A stretch of DNA of 64,000 nt from a virus: IMG/VR virus record IMGVR_UViG_3300045988_184255; one strand, given 5' to 3'. The notes beneath the pieces were generated by a model. The model did no database searches and had not been told where the DNA came from. It saw only the letters and a list, made by a program, of their open reading frames with translations. The translations under genes and the position numbers were made by a program. Below are positions 276 to 37,282 of this stretch, one piece after another (position 1 is the first letter of the stretch; each line of letters begins with the position of its first letter).

Positions 276-1295
276 ATGGATTTAGATGCTCTGGACACCG
301 CATATGGTGCCGAGCAAATCGACTCCGATTTGCTGTTGACAGACATTCGCACAGGGCTTGAATACACTCTTCGGAACAAGACCTATTGTGGACAAGACCC
401 GTTCGGTAAAAGGCGCTACGGTGCTGATGCTGGGGATATGTGTTATGTCTTCGGTAAGGAGAACAACATCTTAAAGTTGGTCATCAACATTGCGTTGGAT
501 GGCGGCTACGGAATAAACCCGCTGCCTCGTGACGTGGCTGCGGCCATTCTGAGGGACGTAAGCGCTGCAATAAAACCTATTGCAAACAAGCACTCGGCAC
601 GAGCTATCATCAAGAAGCAGCCGTTTTGCTCTGCGGCAATGGGTGCCCGTTCAGGTGCCTTATTCCAATCAGCCGCATTATACGGCTACATCATATCAAC
701 GCCCTACGCTAAGGATACCGGCATTCCTGATGAGAAAATCATCTGGGATGCCAACAGAGACATTTGGTGCAAACGCTGCGGTCAGATTCGAGATACGCGA
801 TTTGCTGCCGGCCAGAAAACTGATTACACCATTCAGCCTTCCGATTTTGGGAAGGTATTCCTTCTCGGAGGCTCCCTGTATCGTATCATCGGAATGGGTG
901 AAAACAGCATGGACGAGGTACTCGTGCAAGGTGTAGACGGTCAAGATAAAGGCGATACCGTGGAGATATCTTTGCCCCTCGTTGAACACGCCCTGTACCT
1001 TGCCGAAATGCAAAATGTCAGTGTCTCAAGGGATGTGGAAACTGCTTTCTATGAGAATAAAAAGCATATCCAAGCCCTGCTGGACCGTGTTGGTGTGGAT
1101 GTGATGTACCGTGAGATGTTTGAGCTTGATGGCTTTACCTACGCATTGGTCGGCATCATACCCACCAAAGTAAAGGATATCTTCGGCGCTGTCCGCGTGG
1201 ACGAATCCGGAGAAACCTTTGATGATGTTCTGTTCTTCTCGTTCGGTGATGTCATTGAGGCGATTCGTTCTGAACGTGACGGAAGTAAAAGCTAA
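276..1295 (+). CDS. Paralog A of a four-member tandem family (339 aa), unknown function; conserved Y-C-x-x-DPFG-x-x-R-[YC]-G, [IV]PxxKIxWDA and G[VI]D[VI]xYREMF motifs
   Basis: ATG 276 preceded by aaagaaaggagaacacc; full-length ORF; motifs shared with the three downstream paralogs. Confidence 0.7.
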   Translation: MDLDALDTAYGAEQIDSDLLLTDIRTGLEYTLRNKTYCGQDPFGKRRYGADAGDMCYVFGKENNILKLVINIALDGGYGINPLPRDVAAAILRDVSAAIKPIANKHSARAIIKKQPFCSAAMGARSGALFQSAALYGYIISTPYAKDTGIPDEKIIWDANRDIWCKRCGQIRDTRFAAGQKTDYTIQPSDFGKVFLLGGSLYRIIGMGENSMDEVLVQGVDGQDKGDTVEISLPLVEHALYLAEMQNVSVSRDVETAFYENKKHIQALLDRVGVDVMYREMFELDGFTYALVGIIPTKVKDIFGAVRVDESGETFDDVLFFSFGDVIEAIRSERDGSKS

Positions 1296-1313
1296 AAAGA
1301 AAGGAGAAACGCT

Positions 1314-2351
1314 ATGAACCTGCACACACTTGACACCACCGTTGGTGCGGGAACAATCACCAGCAAGAATGGGCTCTGTGAGTTCATCAAACAGGTTGTT
1401 GAGTTCAACGTGAAGGGACAGGCCTATTGCTGTAAAGACCCCTTCGGAAAAGAACGCTACGGAAATGACCCCGACCTTCCCCACCCGTGCAAGGTATCGT
1501 ACGAAAAAGCTAATATCACAGAAGTCACACTCAACCTCATCGTAGACGCAGACAATCACAAGTACGTTGAGTCATGTGTTGGTGAGATGCGCGATGATAT
1601 TAAGGCGGCTTTGTGGTATGTGGCGGACACGTATAAGGCTCGGATTTTCGTGCAAAAGCCGTCATTCGGGACAAAGCGCAATGGTGCTGGACGGAGATTC
1701 AGGTTTGCGGTGTTCGGTATCGAGTTCATCCGGACGCCGTACCACAACAACCCCAACGTGCCTGATGAGAAAATCGTCTGGGATGCCCGATGCCTGCGAT
1801 TGCAAGAGGATATTGAAGATGAAAAAGGACGCACCAGCGGCCCTCCTCATATGCCTTTCTATCCGCTAAAATCAACCGATTATGAGCGTGAGTTTCTCTA
1901 TGAGGGTGCCATGTATCGTATTGTTGGCTTTGCGGACGAGTTCAGTTATCTGGACGTGCGACTGCAGCCTGCGGGAAGTACGGGAGACGAAGGCATCATA
2001 GTGGTTCCGTTGGCAAATCTTCGGCGACCTCTTTTTGATGATGACGCCGATATCCCCGCACGAAAACTGAAGGCGGCAAAGGAGGAAGAAGTAGACTTTT
2101 ACGAAGGCAGGGATTGTATCAAAGCCGCCCTCGCTCGTGATGGAGTATCCCTTATGTATCGTGAAATGTTCCAGTACGCCAAGCGCACCTATGCATTAAC
2201 TGCAATTACACCGGACGCGCAAAGTCAATCTTACATCTTCACCGCTACTTGCGTTGAGGACGAAGAAGAAAAAGCTGTCGGTGAAAAGCTCAAGCTCACG
2301 TATCAAGAGGTAATTAAACGAGTTATCGCCGACCGCAGACAGTGGGCTTAA
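1314..2351 (+). CDS. Paralog B of the Cys-x-x-DPFG tandem family (345 aa)
   Basis: RBS aaagaaaggagaaacgct then ATG; shares YCCKDPFGKERYG, VPDEKIVWDA, LMYREMFQ with neighbours. Confidence 0.7.
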   Translation: MNLHTLDTTVGAGTITSKNGLCEFIKQVVEFNVKGQAYCCKDPFGKERYGNDPDLPHPCKVSYEKANITEVTLNLIVDADNHKYVESCVGEMRDDIKAALWYVADTYKARIFVQKPSFGTKRNGAGRRFRFAVFGIEFIRTPYHNNPNVPDEKIVWDARCLRLQEDIEDEKGRTSGPPHMPFYPLKSTDYEREFLYEGAMYRIVGFADEFSYLDVRLQPAGSTGDEGIIVVPLANLRRPLFDDDADIPARKLKAAKEEEVDFYEGRDCIKAALARDGVSLMYREMFQYAKRTYALTAITPDAQSQSYIFTATCVEDEEEKAVGEKLKLTYQEVIKRVIADRRQWA

Positions 2352-2372
2352 AAAGCAAGAAAGGAGAAAGCT

Positions 2373-35686: not shown

Positions 35687-35721
35687 TTAAAGTCTATTAA
35701 GACAAGAAAGGAGAAAGCACA

Positions 35722-35931
35722 ATGACAGCCAAGCTGAAAAGTGATGCGCTGAGAGTTGTCAAGAGACTCCGCTGCTACGGCACGGACGCTGAAGACAACT
35801 TCGGCTGTGGCGATAAGCGGTGCAAGTACCGAGATGTGGACGGTGCCTGCAACATTAACAGCCTTGAAGCTGATGCTGCCGAAGTGATAGAGAAATTGTT
35901 GAAGGAGGTTGAAAAGTTTGAACATCGCTGA
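35722..35931 (+). CDS. Small Cys-containing protein (69 aa)
   Basis: RBS gacaagaaaggagaaagcaca then ATG. Confidence 0.45.
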   Translation: MTAKLKSDALRVVKRLRCYGTDAEDNFGCGDKRCKYRDVDGACNINSLEADAAEVIEKLLKEVEKFEHR

Positions 35932-37282
35932 TGTGGTGATGAAATCCCGCAATGTCGAATCGTTCAGCAACCTCCTCCCTGCTGCGTCTGTCACATCAGA
36001 GAAAGCAAAGGCGATTGCCAGTCGGAACGGCTATATGGCGCTCTATACAGCCGATGAACTGCGGAAGAAGTTTCATCTGACCGACGACATCATTGAGAAC
36101 CTCTACTATGGCTGCGGCTTCACCCCGTTCTATTACTGGGATAAGGATAAGGTCATATTCCCCTGCCACAGTCTCACAATGGCAGCCGACGGCGAGGATA
36201 AAACACCTGAAATCCGAGGGGCTGTTGAGCAACTGAAGGAGAAAATTGCTTCAGGCAACTGTAGTTTCATCATCACGGCACTCAACGACCGGATGCGGAT
36301 AGAGTATCTGAAGAAGCTCGTTGATGAGGGCTTTGATGGCGCGTACAAACTGTTCTATGATGTCTACCCTTTTTCCGATTACGGATGCTCCGCACTTGGA
36401 CGGGACGGCATACTGAAGCTCAAGAGCATGAAAACACCGGAACAGATTCAGGCAACGGAGAAGGGGCTCAAGAAGTATCCCGACACCCTGACGGTCTACC
36501 GTGGCGCCGGCGATGAAAGCGCAAGTCTGGAGGAGGCATTCTCTTGGACGCTGGACCCTGCCGTGGCCGTGTTCTTCGCCACACGCTTCCCGTCTGACAA
36601 TGCGAAGGTATTTCGGGCTACAGTCGAAAAAGCCTCTGTCATTGAGTATTTCGAAGGCGTGGAGGCTGAAATTATCGTATCTCCTGATGACATCAAGGAG
36701 GTTGAAGACTTTCCCCTCTATGGTATCGACTGGCTCAATGAGGCCGTGGATGACGGCGCGATAGATGACTTCTGGCTCTATCAGAGGACTGCCGACTATG
36801 ATGCCGTTCCGTTCCAAATGGCAAGCAAACTACACGGAAAGGCTCATGCTGGCCGTGTCCTGTTCATGTGTATGCTGCTGGCATATATGAAGGGTCTGGA
36901 CTTGGAAGACAAGGAAATTCTGATTGAGGCTGCACTGTATCACGACACAGGCAGACGTAGCGATTCCGAGGATAATACCCACGGTGGCGAGAGTGCAAGG
37001 ATGCTGCAGGAAGCATATCCTGATACGGACCCCATCACACTGTTTCTGATGGAGTATCACTGCCGTCCCGATAAGGAAGGCTATGAGTTCATCGAGAAAC
37101 ATTGGTTGGATAAGCAAGATGCACTGCGCGTCAAAACCCTCTTTGATATTTTCAAAGACGCCGATGGTCTTGACCGCGTGCGGCTCGGTAATTATGAGTT
37201 GGATATGTTCCAGCTTCGTACCGAAGAAGCTCGCAAGCTGCCGCAAATCGCAAAAATAACTGAAGACCAACTGAAATTCTAA
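35918..37282 (+). CDS. Protein with C-terminal HD-type phosphohydrolase-like domain (about 454 aa)
   Basis: H...HD pattern (HGKAHAGRV...LYHDTGR) and a downstream His; TTG 35918 is 9 nt after GGAGG (ORF-track start 35909 abuts the SD). Confidence 0.5.
   Translation: MNIADVVMKSRNVESFSNLLPAASVTSEKAKAIASRNGYMALYTADELRKKFHLTDDIIENLYYGCGFTPFYYWDKDKVIFPCHSLTMAADGEDKTPEIRGAVEQLKEKIASGNCSFIITALNDRMRIEYLKKLVDEGFDGAYKLFYDVYPFSDYGCSALGRDGILKLKSMKTPEQIQATEKGLKKYPDTLTVYRGAGDESASLEEAFSWTLDPAVAVFFATRFPSDNAKVFRATVEKASVIEYFEGVEAEIIVSPDDIKEVEDFPLYGIDWLNEAVDDGAIDDFWLYQRTADYDAVPFQMASKLHGKAHAGRVLFMCMLLAYMKGLDLEDKEILIEAALYHDTGRRSDSEDNTHGGESARMLQEAYPDTDPITLFLMEYHCRPDKEGYEFIEKHWLDKQDALRVKTLFDIFKDADGLDRVRLGNYELDMFQLRTEEARKLPQIAKITEDQLKF

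Follow-up and report, generated by a model that had tools for sequence, protein, structure and literature searches.

The DNA considered here is a stretch of 64,000 nt from the IMG/VR virus record IMGVR_UViG_3300045988_184255 (the whole stretch is called the window in what follows). Between positions 276 and 37282 it carries an array of co-oriented genes divided into transcription units, which are headed by near-identical copies of a promoter-bearing sequence, the cassette. The locus raises the question of why one control element should stand before unit after unit of mostly unmatched genes, and of what kind of replicon carries it. The explanation favoured here, with a probability of roughly 55%, is that the array is the distal ~37 kb of a longer cassette-headed block, belonging to an attenuator-gated, plasmid-wide regulon which couples cargo genes to transfer genes. 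At least 13 units, including that of the type IV secretion system (T4SS) and one with a relaxase candidate and a single-stranded DNA-binding protein (SSB), carry an identical strong promoter followed ~100 nt on by an intrinsic terminator of conserved structure. Everything outside the window was read from close relatives, which are 92-100% identical over the shared DNA.

The window has a G+C content of about 51% and is rich in long spurious open reading frames (ORFs) on both strands; all ORFs were therefore scored with a codon-usage model trained on the longest of them. This yields 45 ORFs with coding signal between 276 and 37282, every one on the + strand, the long minus-strand ORFs of the mechanical list being outscored by overlapping + ORFs. 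Thus the one-strand array described in the first-pass annotation is upheld, with about 45 genes in place of about 50. A run of minus-strand genes is called from 37572 to 43695, the first of them ending at 37572, and the cumulative GC skew climbs to ~38 kb and declines beyond. Position 276, given as the start of the array, is not its start: in relatives, co-oriented genes extend tens of kb further left.

The core of the cassette, 64 nt long, occurs six times in the window without a mismatch (at 3528, 7151, 12197, 17354, 23429 and 29439), always on the + strand, whilst none is expected in shuffled sequence. The copies in the window are spaced 3.6 to 6.1 kb apart, a seventh lies ~1 kb left of the window (L007 8507), and there are three in all in the 10 kb leftward. 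Together with an extra promoter at 15439-15468, this bears out the earlier description of a cloned promoter cassette driving seven or more units.

The build of the cassette is best followed in the reference copy, 7108-7352 (Table 1). The terminator of the preceding unit, which varies in sequence, is followed by an extended -10 sigma-A promoter composed of TTGACA, a 16-nt spacer and TGG-TAGTAT. Next comes AGAATTATAATTACGAAGCTAT. The palindrome AATTATAATT lies within it, so that a TATAAT falls on the predicted start site. There follow a 5-bp hairpin (GGAGA-UUA-UCUCC), a U-rich stretch, the conserved AAGUCACC and a variable linker; then, ~100 nt from the start, a stem-loop of 13-16 bp succeeded by U5-8, and an A+T-rich stretch. 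Most copies end in a conserved hairpin of the 5′ untranslated region (5′UTR) and a Shine-Dalgarno (SD) sequence. The whole cassette, ~220 bp in length, is near-identical between units.

Among nine copies of one lineage, mean pairwise identity is 96.4% over the first 86 nt, 81% over the linker and terminator, and 57% over the 60 nt upstream. What is preserved in the terminator is its pairing: the leader terminator of cassette 6 has a different stem sequence in which compensatory changes maintain the helix, and in 29 of the 30 variants folded, from the array and from the transfer (tra) operon, the remaining one being truncated, a leader of 98-103 nt finishes in a terminal hairpin of -16 to -27 kcal/mol followed by U5-8 (for the reference leader, z = -5.9). 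Position-specific terminator variants are common to orthologous cassettes of different plasmids, indicating that the copies are old and that the invariant 5′ part reflects selection. Identity distributed in this way suggests that purifying selection has acted on the promoter and early leader, and speaks against a recent duplication.

Other roles for the leader were considered and dropped. No start codon follows its SD-like GGAG, which speaks against a leader peptide. Every cassette also holds a minus-strand promoter-like site (TTTATA-16-TATAAT, at 7182-7209 in copy 2) that overlaps the + start region and arises because AATTATAATT is palindromic. The predicted minus-strand transcript would be short, run leftward and end in the upstream terminator, which is apparently bidirectional; attenuation by antisense RNA was set aside, as this transcript and the leader would have no stretch in common. 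Cassette 5 is separated from the unit-4 terminator by extra non-coding DNA with four direct repeats of CCCGACTAAA at an exact 34-bp period (23268-23379). Three relatives conserve this stretch at 97-98%, and proteins might bind to it as they do to iterons or a centromere.

The T4SS operon, too, is headed by a cassette-type device. Its promoter and initial transcribed sequence are those of the array cassettes, and they are followed by a hairpin GGAGC-AAAA-GCUCC, the element AAGACACC and a terminator. The stem of the tra terminator is entirely unlike the array stems in sequence, yet perfectly paired. A tra leader 102 nt long with a 14-bp terminator is found in two clades, the more distant of which (81% RepL identity) has a third version of the stem. 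A unit with the SSB and relaxase candidate likewise begins at a cassette, and leaderless promoters of the same plasmid-specific type lie 5′ of a giant adhesin gene, of an S1-domain gene and of the operon at 44 kb in the window. Thus the cassette is a common control element of the transfer genes and the array, not a peculiarity of a leading region. Because it heads both the T4SS operon and the unit with the SSB and relaxase candidate, these are read as one plasmid-wide regulon. The shared promoter, leader and terminator point to co-regulation of the array with the transfer genes and not to a leading region of the F type.

To judge from its gene content, the replicon is a conjugative megaplasmid of ~190 kb that has been filed as viral in IMG/VR. 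Two ENA contigs, 189,867 and 192,742 bp long, contain the first gene of the window, and in one of them window positions 1-11295 recur with 100% identity. A 43-mer search for the cassette core found 30 stretches in five IMG/VR "viral" contigs, the largest of 190,756 bp, co-oriented within each contig. In one relative, IMGVR_UViG_3300045988_183936 (hereafter 183936), whose + strand corresponds to that of the window, the window spans the ends of the record, which is therefore circular or permuted. Rightward of the window end, 183936 encodes in order a giant adhesin of 3801 aa (the second one), ParB, ParA, a vWA tip-pilin-like protein and two RepL/HTH_36-like proteins. These are followed on the + strand by the T4SS operon, with genes for a primase-like protein, a 745 aa multi-pass membrane protein, a CHAP and lysozyme hydrolase, VirD4/TraG, an S1-domain protein and a VirB4-like ATPase. 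The VirD4/TraG coupling protein of the relatives matches PF02534 at 4e-40. No terminase, portal, capsid or tail family was found by Pfam in the window or in ~70 kb of sequence walked in relatives; for some 35 kb of the array, PDB sequences alone served for comparison. The proposal that this is a conjugative element is thereby confirmed in the relatives. Of the machinery that the first-pass annotation had looked for beyond the window, the coupling protein and a VirB4-like ATPase are present, whilst for a relaxase there is a MOBH-like candidate alone. The carrier is read as an uncultured gut Firmicute. Neither the cassette core nor the coupling protein matches any GTDB species representative, megablast of window 1-25000 against PLSDB gives no match, and that of window 29000-53999 against GenBank phages gives a tRNA match only. 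The AAA protein of the array has only weak tblastn matches, to unannotated faecal phage contigs.

In the walked relatives the co-oriented block occupies ~145 of the 190 kb. It starts with the T4SS operon, and the window supplies its last quarter. Without that operon the cassette-bearing array still measures at least 115 kb, roughly threefold the length first described. All genes 3′ of the T4SS operon stay on the + strand; a cassette-type promoter reappears at record position 103.4 kb of 183936, and cassette-headed units run from ~123 kb to the record end and on into the window up to 37282. The array of 183936 is broken by a minus-strand island of ~10 kb with genes for a large serine recombinase, a protein reading as TnpB-like and three paralogues.

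No canonical relaxase was detected in ~170 kb searched by Pfam, by phmmer against PDB with four concatenated sets of unknown proteins, and by a regular expression for the HUH motif over all ORFs. The report of short MOBH-like HD relaxases on Hodor plasmids (PMC12934698) led to an HD protein of 308 aa encoded in the array. A database protein 99% identical to it has a precomputed match to PF07514 (TraI_2, MOBH), one of the relaxase hidden Markov models in use, which makes the 308 aa protein a candidate for a MOBH-like relaxase. Its gene, the only relaxase-like one found, lies inside the array at record positions 154.8-155.8 kb of 183936, ~27.5 kb left of the window start, and a gene for a RecD2-like helicase lies ~5 kb upstream of it. 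The HD protein that ends the array within the window is unrelated to this candidate and was rejected as a MOBH relaxase. No origin of transfer (oriT) was identified; if it lies near the MOBH-like gene, the genes of the window are transcribed away from it.

How might such an arrangement work? Each unit is insulated by the terminator of the preceding one. Under the favoured explanation, transcription would start at every cassette and by default stop after ~100 nt, until a plasmid-specified signal allowed RNA polymerase to read through the leader terminator. A repressor or a Q-like loading factor might provide that signal at the palindrome, the TATAAT or the initial transcribed region; so might a factor that acts on the leader RNA. 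Once polymerase read through, the genes for mating and DNA processing would be switched on at the same time as well over 100 cargo genes, both in donors and once more in new transconjugants, which would be free of repressor. The cargo in the window would serve establishment, anti-defence or host manipulation. The cassettes, as direct repeats, may double as points of homologous recombination at which whole units are lost or gained. Indels of unit size with cassette junctions do occur between relatives: L021 is without window 7349-12151, and L029 is without 17498-23423.

A bolder form of this explanation, put forward tentatively, would make the cassette a new factor-dependent antitermination or pause-loading switch, an analogue of Q or conAn. 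Its copies, at least 13 in number, would tie the T4SS and the relaxase/SSB unit into one regulon with more than 100 uncharacterised genes for establishment or anti-defence, an arsenal of >100 kb that would fire together with them. Otherwise, the default transcripts of ~100 nt could themselves be a multi-copy regulatory RNA. In either case the repeat-bounded units would be exchangeable modules. Were the coupling real, no larger set of plasmid establishment or cargo operons governed by a single repeated element would be known, and the element would offer a handle on the timing of expression around mating in gut Firmicute megaplasmids. It is evident, too, that viral databases contain conjugative plasmids of ~190 kb, whose relaxase may be a short HD protein of the MOBH-like kind, overlooked by standard screens.

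Several points weigh against the favoured explanation. Neither an antiterminator nor a repressor was identified, and a conserved alternative (antiterminator) pairing is not visible in the minimum free energy folds of 30 variants or with RNAalifold. The lack of such pairing argues against a riboswitch or zipper mechanism and for a trans-acting factor. No Rfam family matches the cassette even at relaxed level, the only match at gathering level in the window being a tRNA, and the terminators could be leaky or have another role. In the more distant clade the cassette was found, among the loci examined, at the tra operon only. The T4SS, the rep and par genes and the relaxase-like gene were seen in relatives, not on the molecule of the window itself, and the assignment of the 308 aa protein comes from one precomputed Pfam match, PDB sequence searches being negative. 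Finally, most cargo proteins are without a homologue of known function, and their role in establishment or anti-defence is guessed from context.

The array was originally taken for a leading region of the F/ColIb type, in which oriT would be located at 37283-37570 and the array would enter first, its genes being expressed at once from the transferred strand as template. The conjugative character of the replicon and the direction of all array genes towards 37.3 kb accord with this. So do the cargo types, since toxin folds, the methyltransferase-associated DUF4942, acidic proteins and, further left, an SSB and a methyltransferase resemble the islands of known leading regions (PMC11541004). Repeats and an 18-bp palindrome are indeed found in the non-coding stretch. 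The palindrome is perfect (halves TGCAAACTA and TAGTTTGCA, at 37402-37419), with related TTGCRA motifs close by. However, the supposed palindrome-rich end of the array is for the most part a convergent junction with one terminator per strand, and is only 85% identical in a relative whose flanks are 96% identical. No relaxase adjoins it, the neighbouring HD protein being the one dismissed above, and the 725 aa protein encoded on its other side (38270-40447, minus strand) has no Pfam domain, no PDB fold match and no relaxase-like sequence match. An oriT at 37.3-37.6 kb is therefore unlikely. An Frpo-like single-stranded DNA promoter is likewise rejected: the single-stranded fold of the template leaves the -35 and -10 elements outside any stem (z = -1.9), and the promoters are of the double-strand type. 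Moreover, a leading region of 115-145 kb starting right behind the tra operon would be unlike any described. As a whole, the leading-region reading is now improbable. The 725 aa protein belongs to a family of more than 200 clusters, 40-95% identical, on contigs of up to 377 kb; in another element a homologue lies in a similar co-oriented cargo array with SIR2, SprT, HD_4 and UvrD genes.

A regulon of pure zygotic induction, like that of the p576 element EGeRS2, deserves more attention but is still doubtful. A plasmid repressor would bind the invariant palindrome, the units would fire transiently after entry, and the terminator would merely tune the level of expression. The strong consensus-like promoter, the invariant 10-bp palindrome over the start site and the small DNA-binding proteins of the array (two XRE, LexA_DNA_bind and AbrB-like) would suit such a scheme, for which there is direct precedent (PMC8708921). 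Yet the T4SS operon and the relaxase/SSB unit, both needed in donors, stand under this cassette as well, the structure of the terminator is as conserved as the promoter, and Pfam finds no ribbon-helix-helix (RHH) repressor like Reg576 in the window. Co-orientation might alternatively be driven by replication, with an origin at the divergence of RepL and tra, fork meeting or a terminus at 37.3-37.6 kb, and the cassette as a strong promoter duplicated before accessory cargo. Gene-strand bias is strong in Firmicute replicons, the two strand switches of the plasmid are the RepL-tra divergence and the convergence at 37.4 kb, and the GC skew changes sign at ~38 kb. This account leaves unexplained the conserved ~100-nt leader, the conserved terminator structure and the tra-operon copy in two clades, and its arms would be very unequal (~145 versus ~45 kb); it is given little weight. 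A last reading, in which the array would be the part of a large phage or phage-plasmid that acts early or in host takeover, is highly improbable. The contigs are listed as viral, genes of the YopX, Phage_lysozyme2, DUF1064-like, YqaJ-like and Rad52-like kinds are present, and phage early regions typically show small unknown genes arrayed behind repeated promoters. Against this stand the lack of phage structural and packaging families noted above, the presence of coupling protein, VirB4, ParA/ParB, RepL-like and adhesin genes, and the existence of comparable gut megaplasmids misfiled as viral records (PMC12934698).

Table 1. Features of the window. Positions count from its first nucleotide.
Feature	Position	Strand	Basis
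Co-oriented array: 45 ORFs, 7 transcription units, distal part of a larger block	276-37282	+	codon-usage call, Pfam, leftward extension
Cassette 1: unit-end terminator 3487-3512; -35 at 3528; leader; terminator 3625-3655 with T-run; conserved 5′UTR and SD	3487-3726	+	repeat alignment, promoter/terminator calls
Cassette 2 (reference): terminator ~7108-7135; TTGACA 7151-7156; TGG-TAGTAT 7170-7178; palindrome AATTATAATT 7181-7190; hairpin GGAGATTATCTCC 7210-7222; AAGTCACC 7230-7237; terminator stem 7250-7281 with T-run; 5′UTR hairpin and SD up to ATG at 7353	7108-7352	+	
Cassette 3: terminator 12154-12181; promoter 12197; leader terminator 12294-12327; without 5′UTR segment	12154-12330	+	
Cassette 4: terminator 17311-17334; promoter 17354; leader terminator 17453-17484	17311-17553	+	
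Cassette 5: terminator 23148-23178; four CCCGACTAAA repeats; promoter 23429; leader terminator	23148-23607	+	
Cassette 6: terminator 29395-29425; promoter 29439; leader terminator stem ACTTCCC/GGGAAGT	29395-29640	+	
Separate perfect consensus promoter TTGACA-18-TATAAT, inside unit 3, 5′ of zeta-toxin-like gene	15439-15468	+	promoter call
DUF4942	4733-7081	+	Pfam
PemK/MazF	11804-12148	+	Pfam
HTH_3 (XRE)	14850-15365	+	Pfam
Zeta_toxin	15641-16384	+	Pfam
HTH_3 (XRE)	18780-19223	+	Pfam
DUF4314	27004-27222	+	Pfam
AAA_5, weak	29592-31520	+	Pfam
vWA/CobT_C	32045-34273	+	Pfam
Fic	34571-35686	+	Pfam
HD, last array gene	35909-37282	+	Pfam
Intrinsic terminator closing the array: 12-bp stem, GAAA loop, T-run	37287-37314	+	
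Non-coding stretch between convergent terminators: TTGCRA repeats, ATACGCAA twice, 18-bp palindrome, inverted repeat 37475-37483/37501-37509	37315-37542		
Terminator-like hairpin and T-run (~37543-37566) of minus-strand operon ending at 37572	37543-37570	-	read from sequence
tRNA-Ser (anticodon UGA), between SPFH/flotillin gene and 725 aa operon	41314-41401	-	
Endonuclease_NS_2, non-specific endonuclease	42907-43695	-	Pfam
Related promoter TTGACA-N13-TGGTAATAT, upstream of the + strand operon 44052-47307	43789-43816	+	
Topoisomerase III	49374-51611		Pfam
TED/TQ/SpaA adhesin (thioester), 1897 aa	55961-61654		Pfam
PG_binding, weak match	61905-63140		Pfam

The cargo itself is largely unfamiliar. 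Of the 45 array proteins in the window, 35 stay below the curated Pfam cut-off, and such sequence and fold searches as were run on the unmatched proteins gave nothing; if the favoured explanation holds, these 35 are candidates for new anti-defence or host-manipulation functions. Most of the domains named earlier are recovered by Pfam (zeta, MazF, Fic, HD, two XRE and vWA), whereas the ATPase appears only as a weak AAA_5 match. The acidic proteins noted at the time are also real, seven of the 45 having an isoelectric point below 4.6. The anti-defence families that had been suggested for the small ORFs did not materialise: Pfam detects no ArdA, PsiB, SSB or Acr (anti-CRISPR) family in the window, where a weak Lar-like match was obtained. 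Further left, outside the window, the array encodes an SSB-like protein ending in DDSDLPF, directly 3′ of a cassette, as well as a RecD2-like helicase, an orphan N6_N4 methylase, a YhcG nuclease, DUF3846, LexA- and AbrB-type DNA binders and a protein reading as a YqaJ-like exonuclease.

A number of further observations concern individual cargo genes. A tandem duplication at 24228-25113, with 77-83% DNA identity, has given rise to the adjacent genes 24325-24777 and 24767-25135; both products have weak ProQ C-terminal-like matches and may be RNA chaperones. In the last protein of the array the HD domain is joined to a middle segment (YRG ... SWT ... EAE) which by eye resembles the R-S-E motif of ADP-ribosyltransferases. 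Three otherwise dissimilar array proteins from outside the window (L060 12312-13664, L017 10132-11685 and 2962-3636) appear, again by eye, to have a C-terminal module in common (..VGGHPN..YPNW.Y....CF.....GHP..). Also outside the window, L086 5817-8890 and L075 5880-8880 contain eight copies of a nested-hairpin repeat of ~45 nt (GGTRTAYA..CCCTGAAATAACAGGGTTGTATACC) in groups of two to four. The groups are spaced ~1.4-1.5 kb apart, like a second repeat family, and lie less than 10 kb from genes for paralogues of 257-266 aa.

In the right half of the window, the topoisomerase III, adhesin, nuclease and, weakly, the PG-binding protein of the first-pass annotation are all matched by Pfam. A pair of lipoprotein genes at the right edge (61500-64000) recurs with 99-100% identity in a small element integrated into the chromosome (L063, L001-L006). 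This element has a tyrosine integrase, an excisionase and Rep_trans and adjoins ATP synthase or pyrG genes. This corner is thus common to the plasmid and an integrative mobilisable element. In 183936, positions 63.1-64 kb of the window are replaced by the gene of the 3801 aa adhesin.

The closest architectural parallels are found in pLS20 and p576, where repeated regulatory sequences precede clustered, variable establishment operons, four or five in number with 14-20 genes (PMC8708921). As with EGeRS1 of pLS20 and EGeRS2 of p576, a conserved regulatory sequence stands here before several clustered, highly variable operons of mostly unknown function on a Gram-positive conjugative plasmid. The p576 element, like the cassette, has a strong sigma-A promoter; the cargo includes methylase and anti-restriction-type genes, and the operons form a mosaic 'island'. 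By contrast, the present plasmid has at least 13 units spread over more than 100 kb, a roughly tenfold larger scale; each unit has a promoter-proximal intrinsic terminator, and the device is common to the T4SS operon and the relaxase/SSB unit. The EGeRS elements were compared by architecture only, and the window is without an RHH repressor by Pfam. A looser likeness exists to the anti-defence islands in the leading regions of F and ColIb-P9, where small, little-known genes run in one direction alongside those for SSB, orphan methylases and proteins of toxin-antitoxin type (Samuel et al. 2024, PMC11541004). The present array differs in having the double-strand promoter TTGACA-16-TAGTAT in place of single-stranded promoters of the Frpo/ssi type, in being several-fold larger and probably not adjacent to oriT, and in the absence of ArdA, PsiB and Acr from the window by Pfam.

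Leader attenuators and antitermination are known from conjugation operons of Gram-positive elements, namely the cATT 'zipper' and conAn of pLS20 and canT of Tn916 (PMC13401043, PMC8191782, PMC11658703). There, as in the cassette, an intrinsic leader terminator lies between the main conjugation promoter and the first gene, and a weak stem-loop precedes the terminator. The cassette leader is much shorter (~100 versus 456 nt), the cassette leaders show no complementary 'zipper' segments or conserved alternative pairing, and the device is multiplied across the plasmid where the known ones are single. No homologue of ConAn1 has come to light, no search having been aimed at one. The cassette also resembles the lambda PR′-tR′/Q late switch, a likeness drawn from general knowledge only: common to both are a strong promoter, a -10-like TATAAT over the predicted start, where sigma-dependent pause elements are placed, and a terminator ~100-200 nt downstream that would give a short default transcript. 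The cassette differs in belonging to a plasmid and not a phage, in its many copies, and in that no Q-like protein or binding element was identified.

As for the replicon, its nearest counterparts are the Hodor conjugative megaplasmids of gut Bacillota, which are filed as viral, have no canonical relaxase and encode a short MOBH-like HD protein and a separate helicase (bioRxiv 2026, PMC12934698). ParA/ParB, VirB4, VirD4, giant sortase-type surface proteins, the short MOBH-like HD protein with a separate helicase and the viral filing are all found here too. The plasmids differ in size (189,867, 190,756 and 192,742 bp, ~190 kb, versus >300 kb) and in their initiators, which are RepL/HTH_36-like here and Rep_3 in Hodor. 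A cassette array is not described for Hodor, the main text of that paper being without the word 'promoter' (PMC12934698). Gut Firmicutes are thus known to carry conjugative megaplasmids, and establishment regulons and leader attenuators have each been described as well. What is new is their combination in one cassette, a single promoter-attenuator element copied over more than 100 kb and common to the transfer genes.

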